Assembly (NCBI GenBank): GCA_944325145.1
Contig: CALYDL010000003.1
Span: forward strand, 30,559 to 94,558
Direction: 5' to 3'
Origin: Candidatus Gastranaerophilales bacterium
GTDB taxonomy: Bacteria; Cyanobacteriota; Vampirovibrionia; Gastranaerophilales; Gastranaerophilaceae
Length of the DNA: 64,000 nucleotides
Positions 32,967-39,469 of this stretch are shown one piece after another (position 1 is the stretch's first letter; each line of letters begins with the position of its first letter). The notes beneath the pieces were generated by a model. It made no database searches, had not been told where the DNA came from, and was given only the letters and a program-made list of their open reading frames with translations. A program made the translations under genes and the position numbers.

Positions 32967-33743
32967 ATGTTAAAAATTATGTGCCCTGCAAAAATAAATT
33001 TAACTCTAAAAGTTTTTAAAAAAGATGAAATAACAGGCTTTCACCCAATAAAAAGCATAATGCAGACAGTAAGCCTTTTTGATTATTTAACTTTTGAATT
33101 AACAAATTCAGGAAAAATTGAATTAACGGGCAATAACAATGAAATTGAATATAACGAAAACAATTTAATAATAAAAGCGGCGCTTGAATTTTATAAAAAA
33201 ACAAACTTGCCTATCTTGGGGCTTAAAATTTATTTAGAAAAAAATATCCCGATAGCAGCAGGCTTGGCAGGCGGTTCAACAGACGCTGCAGGCACAATTT
33301 TTGCCCTTAATCAATTGCACAATAACATTTTAAAAAAAGAAGAAATATTCGAAATTAATTCAAAACTTGGTTCAGACATTAATTTTTGCTATTTTGGGGG
33401 AAAAGCGCTTGCTGAAGGCAAAGGCGACAATTTAACCCCCCTTGAATTTGAACCGTTTAATTTAACAATTATAAAGCCAAAAAACCTTAAAATTTCAACA
33501 AAACTTGCCTATGAAACTTTTGATAATTTGAAAGAAACATCAAACTTAAAAAACGACCTTGAATTTGCCATGCTGCCACATTATAAAGAACTTCAAACCC
33601 TTCATAATCTTGGTTTTCAAATGTCAGGCTCTGGGCCTTCGTTTTTCATTTTAAATAAAACCATAAATGAAACCCTTAAAACCCAAGAATATCAAGTTTT
33701 TGAAAACCTAAGGGCAACAAAAAAAGGTGTTGAAATTGTTTAA
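32967..33743 (+). CDS. ispE: 4-diphosphocytidyl-2-C-methyl-D-erythritol kinase
   Basis: 258 aa. PAKINLTLKV, GHMP motif IPIAAGLAGGSTDAA. Confidence 0.9.
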   Translation: MLKIMCPAKINLTLKVFKKDEITGFHPIKSIMQTVSLFDYLTFELTNSGKIELTGNNNEIEYNENNLIIKAALEFYKKTNLPILGLKIYLEKNIPIAAGLAGGSTDAAGTIFALNQLHNNILKKEEIFEINSKLGSDINFCYFGGKALAEGKGDNLTPLEFEPFNLTIIKPKNLKISTKLAYETFDNLKETSNLKNDLEFAMLPHYKELQTLHNLGFQMSGSGPSFFILNKTINETLKTQEYQVFENLRATKKGVEIV

Positions 33744-33942
33744 AATCAACAAAATTTCCCGTTCGGGAAAATTTACCACTTTTTAACCCCAAAAACAATA
33801 AAAATTTCCCGTTCGGGAAAATTTACCCTTTTTTATCTCCAAAAACAATAAAAATTTCCCGCTTTTGGAAAATTCCTTCAATTGTCTTTTAAATAAAGCT
33901 TACCAGCCCCATTTTATATGCCCGAATTTTGCTATTTTATAA
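33741..33942 (+). repeat. left direct repeat with three palindromic boxes
   Basis: TTTCCCGTTCGGGAAA at 33755-33770 and 33805-33820. Variant TTTCCCGCTTTTGGAAAA at 33855-33872. Tail ..CCAGCCCCATTTTATATGCCCGAATTTTGCTATTTTATAAT. Confidence 0.9.
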
Positions 33943-34162
33943 TATTATTATGTAGTAATTAATAAATATTATGCTAATGTTAACAAATGTTTCAAAATTA
34001 AAGATTGTAAAAAGCTGTCCTATCCTACAAATAGACCAAACTTACAACAAAAAAAGTAAAAAATGTTATAATTCTATTGTGCAGGACCGATTGATGCAAA
34101 CTTTCGTCATTGTTTGTGTTAAGCTATTATTGATGTGTTTTGAATGGATACAAGAGGCTTAA

Positions 34163-34663
34163 ATGAATGAGTTTGAATTAATTTTGTGTAGAGTATTATC
34201 TGACTTTGAAATAGACTTTAGAAAGTTCATGGTAGATAAAGATGAAAGAATTAAAGCCCATAAATATTGTTACTTAGTTAGTAAATTTTACAAGTTTCCA
34301 ATAGATGGTTGTTTTTCTCTATATATAAATGGGCCATATAATCATCATTTGACAGATGTTTTGTTTGATATAGCCAGAAATTATGACGATATGCACTGTA
34401 GTTCTCAAAAAATAGAATTGAGCAAAATACATGGCTTAAACAATCTTATTGCTCGGATTATTGAACTATTTCCACCTAAGGATAGCGATGTAGTGTCAAG
34501 ATTAGAAATATTTACTACGTTTGATTTCATTTGTACTAACTATCCAAGTATGTCTGATAACGAAAAATTTGACATGCTTAGAAGAATTAAGGGACATTTA
34601 TTTAATAATGAAACTACGTTGCAAAATTTAATGCATATCAGAGAAGCGCTGAATTCAAGATAA
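34163..34663 (+). CDS. hypothetical protein (weak resemblance to the DUF4065/Panacea-type region, KxxKYCYL..INGPY)
   Basis: 166 aa. AAGAGG RBS. Its 3' end overlaps the convergent HD gene by 9 nt. Confidence 0.5.
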   Translation: MNEFELILCRVLSDFEIDFRKFMVDKDERIKAHKYCYLVSKFYKFPIDGCFSLYINGPYNHHLTDVLFDIARNYDDMHCSSQKIELSKIHGLNNLIARIIELFPPKDSDVVSRLEIFTTFDFICTNYPSMSDNEKFDMLRRIKGHLFNNETTLQNLMHIREALNSR

Positions 34664-36166
34664 AATATTTTCAAAATTGTATACTCTAAAGATTTTTAGA
34701 GTTTTTCGTGCTGTATTTTGTTCATCGGTGTTGTTTTCACTATTTTCATTTGTTATGAATTGCTGAAAGAAGTGATTTGGCATATCGATGATTTTTTTAC
34801 ATTTTAATTTGTCTGATACTTGAATAAAAATATCGTCACAGACAATTTTTTCACTAATTGGAGTGCCGTATAAAAATTTTTTTTCTTTTTTATTTAATTC
34901 TTTAATTTTATTTTCAAAACAAGCTTTAGCTTTTTTGTATTCTGTTTCGTTGCCAGTAATTTGACAATGAGAATTAATTAGGTTGGAGTTTGAAAAATGC
35001 TTATTAAAAAAATTTTGTTTTTCGACTTCTGGAAATTGTCTATTTACAAGCATATTTGCTAATTTGTATGTCATATTTTTTTGTTTACTAGACAGAATCT
35101 TATGGATTTGCTTCCAAAAATAATCATCATTAAAAAAGAAAAATTTATTAGGGCTATTTTCTAATAATGATTTAAAATTGTTAACAGTAGAATATTCTTC
35201 ATCTATTTTTTTATCAATCAATAATTTTGTGTACAATCTTTTTGCAATATTATTTACAATATACGTTTTGTCATAATATAAAATATTCGAATACCAGTAA
35301 TATTTAGCTAAAATAAATTGTTCTATAACTTGTAGAGCCTCTTCTTTGAATGCAACCCTTTCTGTTTTTATACCATTTATTTCTATTTTATATGGAATCA
35401 TATTTTTGATAATAAAATCAATATCTACTGATGCAAGTATCCCAGTATTTATGGTATCTCTTTTCATATAATCCATTTGATCTGCATCTAGTCTGGAATT
35501 AATCAAATCTGAAGCTATAAAATATTCTTTATTGACCGGCTGACCAACAATTAAGCTTGCAATTATTTCAATGTCGCTATCATTTATTTCATGAAACAAT
35601 TTTTTAAAATTTTCTTTAAATGGCCCGCTTTGTAATATATATTTTGCAAATGTTTCATGATGGAGTTCTGATTGATTAACTTTTTCTTGATGCATCAAAA
35701 AAGTTTGTATATCATTGCTGTCACATATTTTTTTTAGTGATGGCTGTTCTGTTATGCCAGTGTTTTCAACTAATAAGCTTTTTAATGACTGCTGTTGCTC
35801 TGCAAGCTGATACTCCTTGTATGAACTTTCTATAGTGTGTGATAGTGGATAATGCCCGATATCATGTAACAATGCAGCCAACCTTGTTATCTGGTGATTT
35901 TTATAGTCATTAAAAAAAGTGCAATTCTTGGCTTTTAATCTTTGAATCATTTTTTCTACAATGTGAAGAACTCCAAGAGAATGAGAAAATCTCGTGTGTA
36001 CTGCACCTGGAAAAACAAAATGTGACAAGCTTAGCTGTTTGATGAAATTTAGCCTTTGAAAGTAGCTGGTATTTAATAGCTCTTTTTCTTCTTTTGTTAG
36101 TGAAATAAAGCCATGAACATTATCATAAATTTTTTCTGTTAAATTATCTTCAAAACGCTTTCTCAT
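34655..36166 (-). CDS. HD-domain phosphohydrolase of the SAMHD1/EF1143-like (COG1078) dNTP triphosphohydrolase type, with a roughly 200-aa C-terminal extension of unknown function
   Basis: 503 aa. IYDNVHGFISL, FQRLNFIKQL, HTRFSHSLGV, LLHDIGHYPLSHT, RLDADQMDYMKRD. Confidence 0.75.
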   Translation of the reverse strand: MRKRFEDNLTEKIYDNVHGFISLTKEEKELLNTSYFQRLNFIKQLSLSHFVFPGAVHTRFSHSLGVLHIVEKMIQRLKAKNCTFFNDYKNHQITRLAALLHDIGHYPLSHTIESSYKEYQLAEQQQSLKSLLVENTGITEQPSLKKICDSNDIQTFLMHQEKVNQSELHHETFAKYILQSGPFKENFKKLFHEINDSDIEIIASLIVGQPVNKEYFIASDLINSRLDADQMDYMKRDTINTGILASVDIDFIIKNMIPYKIEINGIKTERVAFKEEALQVIEQFILAKYYWYSNILYYDKTYIVNNIAKRLYTKLLIDKKIDEEYSTVNNFKSLLENSPNKFFFFNDDYFWKQIHKILSSKQKNMTYKLANMLVNRQFPEVEKQNFFNKHFSNSNLINSHCQITGNETEYKKAKACFENKIKELNKKEKKFLYGTPISEKIVCDDIFIQVSDKLKCKKIIDMPNHFFQQFITNENSENNTDEQNTARKTLKIFRVYNFENILS

Positions 36167-36267
36167 GCTTTTATTCTAGCATATTATTTGAAAAAGAAAA
36201 TGAAAAATCATTTTATTTAGAAAAATCTGCCCTTAACCCCTTATGGCTACAAAAACAAGAAAGCCTA

Positions 36268-36363
36268 TATTTCGCTATATTCAAAATGCAATTTTCCTTC
36301 TTCGTTTTGGTTTAAATAGCCGGCTAATTCTCCATAAAGCCAAACAGAAAGGGGTTTTTTCAT
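36268..36363 (-). pseudogene. hipA: hipA N-terminal remnant (31 codons then a stop)
   Basis: ATGA start/stop overlap with hipB. MKKPLSVWLYGELAGYLNQNEEGKLHFEYSEI* matches the HipA N-terminal coupling-domain pattern. No continuation found in any frame. Confidence 0.55.
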
Positions 36364-36569
36364 AGGTCAATAACCTCAAATTCAATTCCAAGAGAATTTA
36401 AAATTTTTAAAACTTTTCCAATTTGTGCGGTTTCTTTGCCGTTTTCAAATTCAACAATAAACCTCACCCCAACGCTACTTGCAAGCGCAAGCTCGCTTTG
36501 AGTGAGCCCAAGGCTTTTTCTTTTTTCTTTTGCAAATTTCCCTAAATCGCTTGTCGAAGTAATTTTCAA
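36360..36569 (-). CDS. hipB: HipB-like XRE-family antitoxin/regulator
   Basis: 69 aa. LGLTQSELALASSVGVRFIVEFENGKETAQIGKVLKILNSLGIEF (y4mF/HipB-type pattern). Confidence 0.75.
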   Translation of the reverse strand: MKITSTSDLGKFAKEKRKSLGLTQSELALASSVGVRFIVEFENGKETAQIGKVLKILNSLGIEFEVIDL

Positions 36570-36577
36570 AATAATTT

Positions 36578-36774
36578 CCTAAAATTTTCCCGTTCGGTAA
36601 AATTATAACCTTTTTTAACATTAAAATCAACAAATTTTCCCGTTCGGGAAATTTTACCACTTTTTAACCCCAAAAATAATAAAAAATTTCCCGCTTTTGG
36701 AAAATTCCTTCAATTGTCTTTTAAATAAAGCTTTCCAGCCCCATTTTATATGCCCGAATTTTGCTATTTTATAA
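36578..36774 (+). repeat. right direct repeat with three palindromic boxes
   Basis: TTTTCCCGTTCGGTAAAA at 36585-36602, TTTCCCGTTCGGGAAA at 36636-36651, TTTCCCGCTTTTGGAAAA at 36687-36704. Same tail as the left repeat. Lies between divergent hipB and the recombinase gene. Confidence 0.9.
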
Positions 36775-36809
36775 TTTTTATATGCGGTAAATAACCAAAA
36801 GGGGCAATT

Positions 36810-37349
36810 ATGACAACAGTTGAACCCATCAGAAATTTATCCGACCTGAAAAAGGTTGAATTTTTGCTTGAAAAAAATAAAAGAAATTTGCTGCTTTTCA
36901 CTCTTGGAATTAACTCCGGCCTTAGAATTTCAGACATTTTAGCTTTAAATGTTCAAGATGTGAAAGACAAAAAATTTATTCAAATAACAGAAAAAAAGAC
37001 AGGCAAATTCAAAAAAATTCCAATAAATTCAAAATTAAGACCAATGATTTTTGAATTTACCAAAAACAAAAGCCCAAATTCACCCTTGTTTGAAACCGTT
37101 TTTAAAAACAGGCTGGATAGATTTGCTGCTTATGAAATAATAAAAACTGCCTGCAAAAAAGCAGGAATTGAAGGCAAAATAGGCACGCACACTTTAAGAA
37201 AAACTTTTGGCTACCACCATTATAAAAAGTTTAAAGATGTTGCGATATTGCAAAAAATTTTCAACCATTCAAGCCCTTCAATCACTCTAAGATACATTGG
37301 AATTGAACAAGATGAAATTTTTGAAAGCTACGAAAATTTTATTTTGTAA
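36810..37349 (+). CDS. small tyrosine recombinase, catalytic domain only (similar in size to FimB/FimE-type invertases)
   Basis: 179 aa. GLRISD (Arg), HTLRKTFGYH (His-x-x-Arg), NHSSPSITLRYIG (His, Tyr). Confidence 0.8.
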   Translation: MTTVEPIRNLSDLKKVEFLLEKNKRNLLLFTLGINSGLRISDILALNVQDVKDKKFIQITEKKTGKFKKIPINSKLRPMIFEFTKNKSPNSPLFETVFKNRLDRFAAYEIIKTACKKAGIEGKIGTHTLRKTFGYHHYKKFKDVAILQKIFNHSSPSITLRYIGIEQDEIFESYENFIL

Positions 37350-37620: not shown

Positions 37621-38583
37621 TTGAAAGAAAAAATAGATTTGGTTTACCTTTGGTGCAACCTTGATGACCCAAACTTTAAACAAAGAAAAGAAAGTTTCCT
37701 AAACGGGCAAATTGTAGATAAAGAAGCAAACAACCCATGCCGTTTTACAGATAATGGCGAATTAAAATATTCTCTAAGGTCTGTTGAACTATATGCCCCT
37801 TGGGTGAATAAAATTTATATTGTAACAGATAACCAAATTCCCGATTGGTTAAATTTAAATCATCCAAAAATTCAAATTATTAACCAAAGTGAAATTATGC
37901 CTAAATCTGCCCTTCCTTCTTTTAATTCAATTGCAATTGAACATTGCATAAAAAATATTCCAAATCTAGAAGAACACTTTATATATGCAAATGACGACAC
38001 TTTTTTTAATGATTACATAACGCCTGAATTTTTCTTTAATAAAAATGGCCACCCCATTTCAAGGTTTAGAAAAAAGCGCAAAAAACGCTATTATACAATT
38101 TATGAATACGCTTTAAATAATGCAGAAAATTTAATATATAAAAAATTTAATTTAATGCTGAATTTTGAACCGCACCATAATATAGATGCATATTTAAAAT
38201 CGGAAGTTATTAATTGCTATGAAACATTTAAAAATGAAATAGATAAAACAATTAATTCCCATTTTAGAAATAAAGAAAATGTTGAACGTGCAATTTATCA
38301 AAAATATTTTATAGCACATAAAAAAGGCGAATTTAAAAGGGTTTCAAGAGTTGATTGCAAATTAAACCCAATTAAAAGGCTTATAAATTTAATTAAAAAA
38401 GAATATAAAAAAGATTCTTGTTTAATTTCGCCCCAAGGAAGAAACATAGAAGAAATTTTAAACAAATTTAAACCCTATCTTTTTTGCCTGAATGACAATG
38501 AAAACACGACAAAAGAGGATATAGAACTTATGAAAGAATTTCTTCAAAAAAGATATCCAAATAAATCGGCTTTTGAAATTTAA
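37621..38583 (+). CDS. Stealth-family capsular polysaccharide hexose-1-phosphate transferase
   Basis: 320 aa. TTG start after AAAGGAG. CR1 IDLVYLWCNLDDP, CR2 LKYSLRSVELYAPWVNKIYIVTDNQIPDWL. Confidence 0.8.
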   Translation: MKEKIDLVYLWCNLDDPNFKQRKESFLNGQIVDKEANNPCRFTDNGELKYSLRSVELYAPWVNKIYIVTDNQIPDWLNLNHPKIQIINQSEIMPKSALPSFNSIAIEHCIKNIPNLEEHFIYANDDTFFNDYITPEFFFNKNGHPISRFRKKRKKRYYTIYEYALNNAENLIYKKFNLMLNFEPHHNIDAYLKSEVINCYETFKNEIDKTINSHFRNKENVERAIYQKYFIAHKKGEFKRVSRVDCKLNPIKRLINLIKKEYKKDSCLISPQGRNIEEILNKFKPYLFCLNDNENTTKEDIELMKEFLQKRYPNKSAFEI

Positions 38584-39469
38584 AAGGGGGCATGGTTTGC
38601 AAAATAAAAAAATATTAGTGCATCTGCACCTTTATTATCAAAACCAATTAAATTATTTTATAAAAAAATTAAAAAATATAACTTGCGAATTTGATTTAAT
38701 TGTTACCCTTGCAAATGAAAACCCCAAATTAACGGAAAAAATTAAACAATTTAAACCTAATGCCAAAATTTTGGTTGTTGAAAATTTGGGCTATGATGTT
38801 TACCCGTTTATTCAAGCCATAAATGAAACCGAACTTAAAAATTACGATTATATTTTAAAAATTCACACAAAAAACAAAAGAAAAGAATATAAGAAATTTA
38901 AAAAACTTCTTCACCATGGCTTTGATTGGCGCAATTTGCTTGTTTCTTCCTTAATTGGTTCTAAAAAAGTTTTTAACAACAATTTAAAACTTTTGGAAAA
39001 CGAAAAAACAGGCATGGTTTCAGACAATATTTTTATACATAAAATTCAAAATCAAAGCGTCAGAAATTTTGAATATACAAATGAAATTATGCAAAAATTT
39101 GCTTGCATGGATGACAAAGCAACATTTTCAACAGGCACAATGTTTCTTATTAAAAGAGAAATAGTTGAAAAAATAAAAAGTTTTAATTTTACAAAAGAAG
39201 ATTTTACATCCCATGGCGACAAACAAATGAAAACAGGCAATTTGGGGCAATTTGCCCATGCCATGGAAGCTTTTTTCGGCGCAGTTGTAGCTGATATGGG
39301 ATATGAACATATAGGCGCTTCTGATTTTTGGCAGCATTTCTTCTTTTATTTAAAACAGCCCTATTACAGAATTAAAAGGGGAATTTTTTCAATTGAACAC
39401 AAGTTTGACGGAACTGTTGTTTTAATCATCTTGTTTAAAAAAATGAAACTAAAACAAAAGAAAAAATAA
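38573..39469 (+). CDS. rhamnan-synthesis protein F (RgpF)-like protein
   Basis: 298 aa. ILVHLHLYYQNQL..FDLIVT pattern. Start uncertain: TTG 38573, or TTG 38597 after AAAGGGGG. Confidence 0.55.
   Translation: MKFKRGHGLQNKKILVHLHLYYQNQLNYFIKKLKNITCEFDLIVTLANENPKLTEKIKQFKPNAKILVVENLGYDVYPFIQAINETELKNYDYILKIHTKNKRKEYKKFKKLLHHGFDWRNLLVSSLIGSKKVFNNNLKLLENEKTGMVSDNIFIHKIQNQSVRNFEYTNEIMQKFACMDDKATFSTGTMFLIKREIVEKIKSFNFTKEDFTSHGDKQMKTGNLGQFAHAMEAFFGAVVADMGYEHIGASDFWQHFFFYLKQPYYRIKRGIFSIEHKFDGTVVLIILFKKMKLKQKKK

Follow-up and report, generated by a model that had tools for sequence, protein, structure and literature searches.

We analysed a 64,000-nucleotide (nt) stretch of a Candidatus Gastranaerophilales genome (contig CALYDL010000003.1, positions 30,559 to 94,558), hereafter the window, within which all positions are given. 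The genome is 1.88 Mb long, has about 33% G+C and is abundant in gut metagenomes of chicken and birds. An initial annotation of the window had singled out a pair of genes as a candidate nucleotide-depletion defence module. As it described, the two open reading frames (ORFs), of 503 and 166 amino acids (aa), converge and overlap by 9 nt at their 3' ends; we refer to their products as the HD protein and the small protein. The core of the locus consists of:

34163..34663, + strand: small partner gene, 166 aa, encoding a stand-alone protein similar to the DarG C-terminal domain (ORF, conserved family, AlphaFold2 and Foldseek, PADLOC DarG hidden Markov model (HMM))
34655..36166, - strand: HD effector gene, 503 aa, encoding a SAMHD1/EF1143-type (COG1078) predicted deoxynucleoside triphosphate (dNTP) triphosphohydrolase (ORF, Pfam HD, phmmer against PDB sequences, AlphaFold2 and Foldseek, invariant residues)
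34655..34663, no strand: overlap of the two convergent 3' ends, leaving no space for an intergenic terminator

A predicted dNTP triphosphohydrolase of the SAMHD1 branch

The HD protein matches the Pfam HD family (5.9e-9), and phmmer against PDB sequences relates it to an Aquifex protein (2hek, 5e-30), Enterococcus EF1143 (1e-23), human and mouse SAMHD1 (about 1e-18) and Bacteroides BT4208. The fungal SAMHD1 of Rhizophagus (9mr6), named as such through the fold search, is also a sequence match (7.5e-20). All of the COG1078/SAMHD1 motifs quoted in the initial annotation are present, and their catalytic residues do not vary across an alignment of 50 homologous sequences: H57, H101, D102, H105, H110, H170, E171, D227, D229, D232, Y233, R236, D237, R38 and Q44. 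This set includes the H...HD...D metal site (H57, H101-D102 and D227), the H-E pair (H170-E171) and the extra histidines H105 and H110 of the HDxGHxPxSH block; the pair and these histidines align to 2hek and EF1143. Because the residues of the catalytic motifs are invariant, the active site is intact.

Sequence similarity to solved SAMHD1-family structures stops near residue 336, so the claim that the C-terminal region lacks recognizable similarity holds at the level of sequence, but it does not hold for the fold. The AlphaFold2 model (pLDDT 91.5) aligns in Foldseek over about 500 columns to SAMHD1, EF1143 (2o6i is listed among the matches), 2hek, BT4208 and 9mr6, with TM-scores (TMq) of 0.57-0.65 and E values of 3e-16 to 1e-14. 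The fold alignment runs the whole length of the protein, and the C-terminal third is therefore the normal C-terminal lobe of the SAMHD1 fold. Sequence and modelled structure together identify the protein as a predicted dNTP triphosphohydrolase of the SAMHD1/EF1143 type (COG1078), with the same fold, metal site, H-E pair and substrate-contacting residues as SAMHD1 and EF1143. It differs from them in having no SAM domain, in sharing only about 16-20% identity in structural alignments and in having a dedicated small partner, which SAMHD1 and EF1143 lack.

Membership of the Dgt branch was considered and rejected, as no full-length family-model match rises above its cut-off. The PADLOC dGTPase model PDLC02374 scores 30.4 bits, over model positions 48-121 of 395, which is the HD motif region only; NCBIfam TIGR01353 (dGTP_triPase) gives 23.6 bits against a cut-off of 152.35, and Shewanella dGTPase (9p8w) is matched at an E value of 0.012. 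Five related HD proteins likewise fall below a full-length PADLOC or NCBIfam dGTPase match.

A stand-alone relative of the DarG C-terminal domain

The small protein of the window has no match in Pfam, NCBIfam, PHROGs or the BFVD viral structures, and searches of PDB sequences with the single sequence and with a nine-sequence profile returned nothing useful. It nevertheless belongs to a conserved family. Its relatives form eight clusters at 46-99% identity, and a profile search of 1.84 billion representatives recovered 197 proteins of about 150-185 aa, giving the family a size of some 200 cluster representatives. In an alignment of 12 sequences, 31 columns are invariant, and the most conserved block is a KxxKYCYL...NGPY stretch in which K34, Y37, N56, G57, P58, Y59 and N60 never change. 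The initial annotation had read this stretch as a hint of a DUF4065/Panacea antitoxin-type domain. The stretch is real and does belong to an antitoxin-type domain, but not to Panacea: none of 52 sampled family members matches PF13274 at E <= 0.01, and no Pfam family is matched consistently.

The domain in question is instead that of DarG. The AlphaFold2 model of the small protein (pLDDT 93.9) finds as its top Foldseek matches in the PDB chains D and B of 7yk3, the Mycobacterium tuberculosis DarT-DarG complex (probability 1.00; TMq 0.62 and 0.58), and all other matches have TMq values below 0.3. From their length (187-188 aa) and the region covered by the HMM, we infer that these two chains represent the DarG C-terminal domain. 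The PADLOC DarG HMM matches 40 of the 52 sampled members (best 1.5e-11), and every match is confined to a part of the model outside the macrodomain (positions of about 164-269 of 329). The combination of profile and model similarity points to a stand-alone homologue of the DarT-binding C-terminal domain of DarG. The rest of a DarTG system is missing: at 166 aa, with no Pfam family and with HMM matches confined to non-macrodomain positions, the small protein has no sign of a macrodomain, and the neighbour of its gene in every context examined is an HD phosphohydrolase rather than DarT. DarG2 is known to have two ways of neutralizing DarT, an enzymatic one that depends on its macrodomain and direct binding by its C-terminal domain (PMC11825919, PMC12170906, PMC8832971, citing Deep et al. 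2023).

Two weaker likenesses were also seen in the small family. A 52-sequence profile picked up ferritin heavy chain at positions 97-157 (whole-sequence E 5.6e-4, domain E about 0.2), which we judge to be spurious similarity between helices, and 2 of the 52 proteins match PDC-M19A of PADLOC.

The two genes are inherited together

The pair is adjacent at every related locus where the contig leaves room for both genes, with the exception of one phage-like contig (L004), on which the small gene stands by itself. Of 301 genomes sampled from the class, exactly 5 have the close HD clade (E <= 1e-155), and the small gene adjoins it in each. At Gastranaerophilales loci the genes always converge, with 3' ends that range from a 15-nt overlap to an 11-nt gap. 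Two genomes of other families (G110 and G136) have the HD gene followed by the small gene on one strand, and the reverse order, with the small gene directly upstream of the HD gene on the same strand, is found in Cellulosilyticum lentocellum (P0150, abutting) and at locus L051 (P0200, 55 nt apart). That the pair is kept across three gene orders (convergent, small then HD, HD then small) points to a functional partnership and not to a chance local arrangement. The same co-directional arrangements make the convergent overlap a clade-specific layout of the Gastranaerophilales. The overlap noted in the initial annotation is thus real in the window, but the mutual antisense transcription that it was thought to provide cannot be essential.

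Co-divergence tells the same story. Across 12 loci, pairwise identities of the HD and small proteins correlate with r = 0.935, a value reached in 0 of 5000 Mantel permutations, and the small protein is the faster evolving of the two. Adjacency, the abutting operon of Cellulosilyticum (L047) and this correlation are what is expected of the adjacent, co-inherited genes of a type II toxin-antitoxin (TA) system. The small ORF is conserved and co-occurs strictly with the HD gene; a lack of conservation or co-occurrence was one of the findings that the initial annotation had named as refuting its proposal.

An accessory pair that has spread recently

The HD gene is present as a single copy in the window genome, whereas 11 other species of the genus and 13 other genera of the family lack it. 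In 185 of the 301 class genomes, all but five of them outside this family, the only homologue is a distant and unpartnered COG1078 protein, presumably a housekeeping enzyme. The site itself is empty in a sister species (G001, about 85% nucleotide identity), which has ispE, a hipA remnant, hipB, the repeat R, the recombinase and Stealth but not the pair. These absences show that the HD protein is not a conserved housekeeping orthologue, the other finding that the initial annotation had named as refuting its proposal.

In the window, the locus runs from ksgA and ispE through repeat R1, the small ORF (+) and the HD gene (-) to a hipA stump (-), a hipB-like helix-turn-helix (HTH) gene (-), repeat R2, a 179-aa tyrosine recombinase (+), the Stealth and RgpF glycosyl genes and a ribosomal RNA (rRNA) operon. 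The features around the pair are:

33742..33962, no strand: repeat R1, which copies part of R2 in direct orientation (87% identical) and lies at the left end of the inserted segment; its palindromes are at 33755-33770 and 33805-33820
33914..36272, no strand: cargo segment that is near-identical across strains with diverged flanks (read and contig comparison in X5, X8 and X10)
36265..36363, - strand: HipA N-terminal stump of 32 codons between hipB and the HD gene (translation; Pfam Couple_hipA positions 1-27, E 0.0045)
36360..36569, - strand: HipB/Y4mF-type HTH gene, upstream of and in the same orientation as the HD gene (NCBIfam TIGR03070, 72 bits against a cut-off of 71.65; Pfam HTH_3)
36573..36794, no strand: repeat R2, the hipB/recombinase intergenic region, in which palindromes at 36586-36601 and 36636-36651 flank a - strand TTGATT-17-TATAAT match
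36810..37349, + strand: tyrosine recombinase, 179 aa, adjoining the module (Pfam Phage_integrase 1.4e-24; phrog_216 4.6e-59)

The HTH gene and the stump, which is coupled to the hipB stop through an ATGA overlap, are the TA remnant that had been noticed beside the pair. Comparison with the sister species indicates that R1 and the pair replaced most of hipA and left the 32-codon stump. The sister species itself retains hipB and, after it, a hipA whose internal deletion is a different one (L009, G001:C37 758-1066): the N-terminal 21 codons precede an out-of-frame C-terminal piece. As the deletions differ, hipBA decayed independently in the two lineages.

Sequencing runs from other studies document the movement of the segment. 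In DNA runs from gut metagenomes of chicken, bird and other origin (X5, X8 and X10), the cargo of X5 and X8 is identical to that of the window at all but 3 of 2359 nt, and X10 shows 9 letter differences and 8 gap positions over a 2745-nt contig that reaches position 36650. This divergence of 0.1-0.3% compares with 5.3-5.4% in ispE (32/606 and 52/959), about 2.6% in the recombinase and about 7.7% in Stealth. Near-identical cargo between diverged flanks means that the segment spread recently between diverged strains. Elsewhere the pair sits in unrelated places: between ispE and rRNA promoters in L001, with no hipB, recombinase or R1/R2-type repeats; near recA in L030; next to flagellin in L006; and inside restriction-gene clusters in other relatives.

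Neighbouring defence genes

The defence-island pattern that the initial annotation had invoked is seen at related loci. Restriction-modification (RM), McrBC, PLD, Nmad3 or Mrr genes lie within about 5 kb of the pair in 7 of about 11 distinct contexts by raw count. The neighbours are:

L034: type I hsdRMS, PLDc_2, Nmad3 and an HTH gene
L035-37 and L046: Dcm methylase, MutH-like endonuclease, SNF2 helicase and an integrase fragment
L041: HsdS
L039/40: McrB-like AAA_5 and McrC (3e-72)
L043: Eco57I-type enzyme
L047: end of a prophage lysis module, then Mrr
L051: type III methyltransferase

In two of these loci (L035, 6730-9617, and L046, 6524-9387), the Dcm-type cytosine methylase gene lies about 12 nt upstream of the HD gene on the same strand and next to the MutH-like endonuclease and SNF2 helicase, an arrangement that suggests a larger composite island. 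Locus L047 belongs to the cultured Firmicute Cellulosilyticum lentocellum (CP002582, 1128265-1136771), where the small-then-HD operon follows XhlA-like and Amidase_2 lysis genes and precedes the Mrr-type nuclease. This species offers a tractable source of the pair, so that experiments need not depend on an uncultured gut host.

An orphan small gene on a phage-like contig

The exception to strict pairing is a 3.35-kb contig (L004) that also encodes an Erf-like annealing protein (1e-44), a single-stranded DNA-binding protein (SSB, 3e-28) and a phage replication-type protein. Relatives of its Erf protein, 46-54% identical, are found on IMG/VR viral contigs of 9.5-48 kb. The copy of the small gene is 96% identical in DNA sequence to that of L030 over 617 nt, comprising 65 nt upstream, the ORF and 57 nt downstream; just the last 20 or so codons of the HD gene are retained, and the promoter motif of the window is shared further upstream. 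A search for longer contigs of this element found none. By analogy, the contig looks like a case of counter-defence by an orphan antitoxin, and it parallels the orphan DarG-like or antitoxin-like genes that phages carry for that purpose (PMC11825919, PMC11481870).

A second small-gene context may exist. A contig in X8 matches the window up to position 34677, 14 nt beyond the stop of the small gene, and continues as unrelated sequence; the RNA contigs of X27 and X28 end at 34679. The X8 contig may show the small gene in a further setting that lacks the HD gene, or its match may be short and spurious.

Expression and regulation

Both genes are transcribed. One metatranscriptome (X25) contains a single contig spanning 34085-36650 at a depth of 13.5, with flanks at or below 2.5. 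A second (X27) covers only 34151-34679, that is the small gene, at a depth of 11.8, with the HD gene at 0, and contigs of a third (X28) start at 34089 and end at 34679. The contig starts lie just downstream of a probable promoter:

34064..34072, + strand: extended -10 promoter TGTTATAAT inferred for the small gene, 13-17 nt upstream of the RNA contig starts at 34085 (X25) and 34089 (X28)

This extended -10 element is perfect, and L004 and L030 have it at the same distance. Upstream of hipB, the best match to a promoter is TTGATT-17-TATAAT on the - strand (36630-36602), between two TTTCCCGTTCGG(G/T)AAA palindromes, and the X25 contig extends from this match through hipB into the HD gene. A scan for consensus promoters yielded 18 matches where 17.7 were expected, which is not above chance.

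At locus L034, an HTH protein 54% identical to that of the window is encoded directly upstream of the HD gene and is preceded by similar palindromes (TTTACCGTACGGGAAA), which favours the palindromes as operators of the HTH protein. The HipB-like HTH protein is a probable transcriptional controller. It is not a constant part of the module, being present in 2 of about 11 contexts, and in the window hipB predates the insertion.

Two further candidates in this region were set aside. A terminator-like hairpin after the small gene (34679-34711; stem-loop 34685-34702) has a folding energy of -7.9 kcal/mol and a z-score of -2.2 in the window and is not conserved in L001, L004 or L035. A 63-aa ORF at 33971..34162 has no homologues, and as the RNA contig starts and the promoter fall inside it, we take it to be non-coding.

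A candidate TA-like nucleotide-depletion defence

An accessory, mobile HD gene tied to a small ORF, the core of the original proposal, is what every comparative test we ran supports, and the comparisons suggest how such a module might work. We give a probability of roughly 55% to the pair being a TA-like nucleotide-depletion defence in which the HD enzyme would hydrolyse dNTPs, the DarG-like protein would bind and silence it and infection would set it free. In uninfected cells the small protein would hold the enzyme inactive. Infection would release it, either because the small protein is lost or titrated or in response to a phage cue, and the free enzyme would then drain the dNTP pool and stop DNA synthesis by phage and host alike. 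At the window locus, the module replaced the hipA toxin gene of hipBA, which placed the HD gene downstream of hipB and its putative palindromic operators, and the inferred extended -10 promoter drives convergent transcription of the small gene. Clover (CloA/CloB; PMC12265719) provides a precedent for a defensive dNTPase kept in check by a partner gene, and nucleotide depletion is well established as a way in which antiviral effectors act (10.1101/2021.04.26.441389; PMC12265719).

Several observations weigh against this interpretation. The HD protein matches the catalogued models of defensive dGTPases weakly (30 bits in PADLOC and far under the cut-off in NCBIfam), and two of its closest solved relatives, 2hek and BT4208, have no assigned activity. 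The likeness of the window's own small protein to DarG is remote (E 0.0032 against the DarG HMM; TM-score 0.62), and a 52-sequence family profile did not recover 7yk3 from PDB sequences. The orphan copy rests on one assembled 3.35-kb Logan contig, and no homologue of the small gene was found in IMG/VR or in GenBank phages. Some contexts contain no defence genes (L001 at ispE and the rRNA operon, L030 at recA and L006 at flagellin). Finally, RNA depth derived from contigs measures expression poorly and does not distinguish the strands.

The alternative that survives best keeps the defence role and recasts the small protein as a sensor or activator, which would recognize a phage component, such as a single-stranded DNA-binding or recombination protein, and activate the HD enzyme in response. 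Linkage, co-divergence and defence contexts would fit a sensor-effector pair equally well, and the small gene of L004 adjoins the Erf and SSB genes. The title of Deep et al. 2023, as cited in PMC11825919, describes the DarG C-terminal domain as a mimic of single-stranded DNA, and a relative of it could bind phage single-stranded DNA-binding proteins. We regard such a role as unlikely, as the one known function of the homologous domain is to inhibit a partner enzyme, and carrying an activator of defence would bring a phage no benefit, whereas an orphan inhibitor would be useful to it. In Firmicutes, moreover, the small gene comes first and abuts the HD gene, which is the classical antitoxin-toxin layout, and one metatranscriptome has the small gene expressed with no detectable HD transcript.

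Rather less probable is a plain addiction module, in which the two genes would act as toxin and antitoxin to stabilize mobile DNA without any role in phage defence. The replacement of the toxin gene of a hipBA locus beside a recombinase, the spread between strains as a unit of 2.4-2.7 kb, the position at a prophage end in Cellulosilyticum and the contexts free of defence genes would all suit such a module. It would not explain why the pair recurs among RM, McrBC, PLD and Nmad3 genes in independent contexts, or why a phage-like element appears to carry the neutralizer alone, and it has to be set against the established antiviral use of nucleotide depletion (10.1101/2021.04.26.441389; PMC12265719); the two roles are in any case compatible.

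We consider it about equally improbable that the HD protein is an effector with another substrate, acting as a nuclease or hydrolysing some other nucleotide or a signalling molecule. The chemistry of the HD superfamily is diverse, and 2hek and BT4208, which are among the best matches, have no assigned activity; structures that match our model (6u6x and 8d94) document that SAMHD1 binds nucleic acids, and the weak PADLOC dGTPase match would also fit. Against this, all of the SAMHD1/EF1143 motifs are present and invariant, among them the H-E pair (the dNTPase dyad according to PMC12265719), the Q and R residues and D-x-x-D-Y-x-x-R-D, and the best-characterized relatives are dNTPases: EF1143 and SAMHD1 by both sequence and fold, and Rhizophagus SAMHD1 (9mr6) by sequence. 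That the HD protein is a housekeeping regulator of dNTP pools beside an unrelated or non-functional ORF is very improbable: COG1078 enzymes are common, 185 of the 301 class genomes have a distant unpartnered one and the L001 pair lies between ispE and the rRNA operon, as in the window, but the absences across genus and family, the empty site in the sister species, the perfect linkage and co-divergence with the small gene and the confident fold and 31 invariant columns of the small protein all speak against it.

Relation to known systems and significance

The nucleotide-depletion defences known from bacteria rely on Dgt-type dGTPases or dCTP deaminases. A defensive dNTPase in the present pair would share with the Dgt-type enzymes (Tal et al. 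2022) and with Clover the use of a nucleotide-depleting HD enzyme as antiphage effector, and with Clover also a partner gene that restrains the dNTPase and so prevents toxicity before infection. It would differ in that those enzymes belong to the Dgt branch and this one to the SAMHD1 branch. The partners differ too: CloB is a nucleotidyltransferase that makes an inhibitory nucleotide, whereas the 166-aa protein here is helical, looks non-enzymatic and has no nucleotidyltransferase match. With DarTG2 the pair shares the fold and HMM signal of the toxin-binding DarG C-terminal domain, and the orphan copy described above recalls the phage-borne DarG-like genes; in contrast to DarTG2, it has neither a macrodomain nor a DarT ADP-ribosyltransferase and has an HD phosphohydrolase as the partner, so that enzymatic action of the DarG-macrodomain type is impossible. 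The Panacea antitoxin PanA (DUF4065) offers a parallel of another kind, as a small antitoxin domain that occurs with varied toxins and has a similar-looking K-x-x-K-x-x-Y-L ... G-P motif (PMC8832971), although the absence of PF13274 matches among the 52 family members sets the small protein apart and no HD toxin is listed for PanA in that study.

The layout of the window locus also has a counterpart. In RM units with a controller (C) protein, the R and M genes can be convergent. The window and L034 similarly combine an HTH gene, putative palindromic operators and a predicted toxic enzyme in one operon, with the putative protective gene converging on it from its own promoter. The chemistry and the proteins are different from those of RM units, and the HTH gene accompanies the pair in only a minority of contexts.

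Neither PADLOC 2.0 nor the searchable literature yielded a description of the pair, and a 2026 review still counts true SAMHD1-like bacterial defence proteins as unidentified (PMC13276650). What would be new here is the combination, in which a known effector logic and a known antitoxin domain come together and the effector is a member of the SAMHD1 branch proper. As precedents, single-gene Dgt-type dGTPases, Clover and DarTG come closest. More tentatively, a SAMHD1-clade dNTPase held in check by a protein resembling the DarG C-terminal domain may constitute a widespread and uncatalogued antiphage TA system, distributed over Gastranaerophilales, Clostridia and other groups, and some phages may bear just the inhibitor for counter-defence. 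The effector would then be a much closer bacterial relative of SAMHD1 than those of known defences, and restraint of a toxic dNTPase by a protein would complement the nucleotide-based restraint seen in Clover. The toxin-binding domain of DarG would become a portable antitoxin module with switched toxin partners, as described for Panacea antitoxins.

Animal SAMHD1 is an antiviral restriction factor that depletes dNTPs, and viruses counter it with a dedicated protein. If the proposed reading of L004 is right, its phage-borne inhibitor would be a bacterial parallel to the virus-encoded SAMHD1 antagonist, and it is in any event a directly testable candidate for a phage-borne dNTPase inhibitor.

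Repeats, recombinase and surface-glycan genes

R1 and R2, a direct repeat of about 220 nt, are the sole two copies in the genome. Both are composed of 50-nt units, each with the palindrome TTTCCCGTTCGGGAAA, and R1 lacks the hipB-proximal unit. One candidate excision joint between them was found in X8 (33823 to 36739, depth 4.45, with 31 unrelated letters between); it is better read as a diverged allele with a single R. An integron gene cassette was likewise rejected, as the recombinase is 179 aa long and scores 45.6 against a cut-off of 265 for TIGR02249, the insertion took the place of hipA and did not enter at the repeat, hipB lies between R1 and R2, and the L001 pair has no repeats. We found no evidence that the recombinase moves the pair: the insertion is not at the repeat, the integron models fail and the joint is otherwise explained. 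The sister species has the recombinase at the same place without the pair.

The recombinase family is multi-copy, with four copies in the window genome and up to six in relatives, and is present in 25 of 41 related genomes; the other copies in the window genome (G000) are at C8:6068-6607, C8:6920-7399 and C13:31475-32008. Beyond the recombinase, the Stealth (CR1, CR2 and CR4) and RgpF-like surface-polysaccharide genes at 37621-39469 have the lowest G+C content in the window (25-28%). They form a variable surface-glycan locus directly upstream of the rRNA operon, with about 7.7% divergence between strains.

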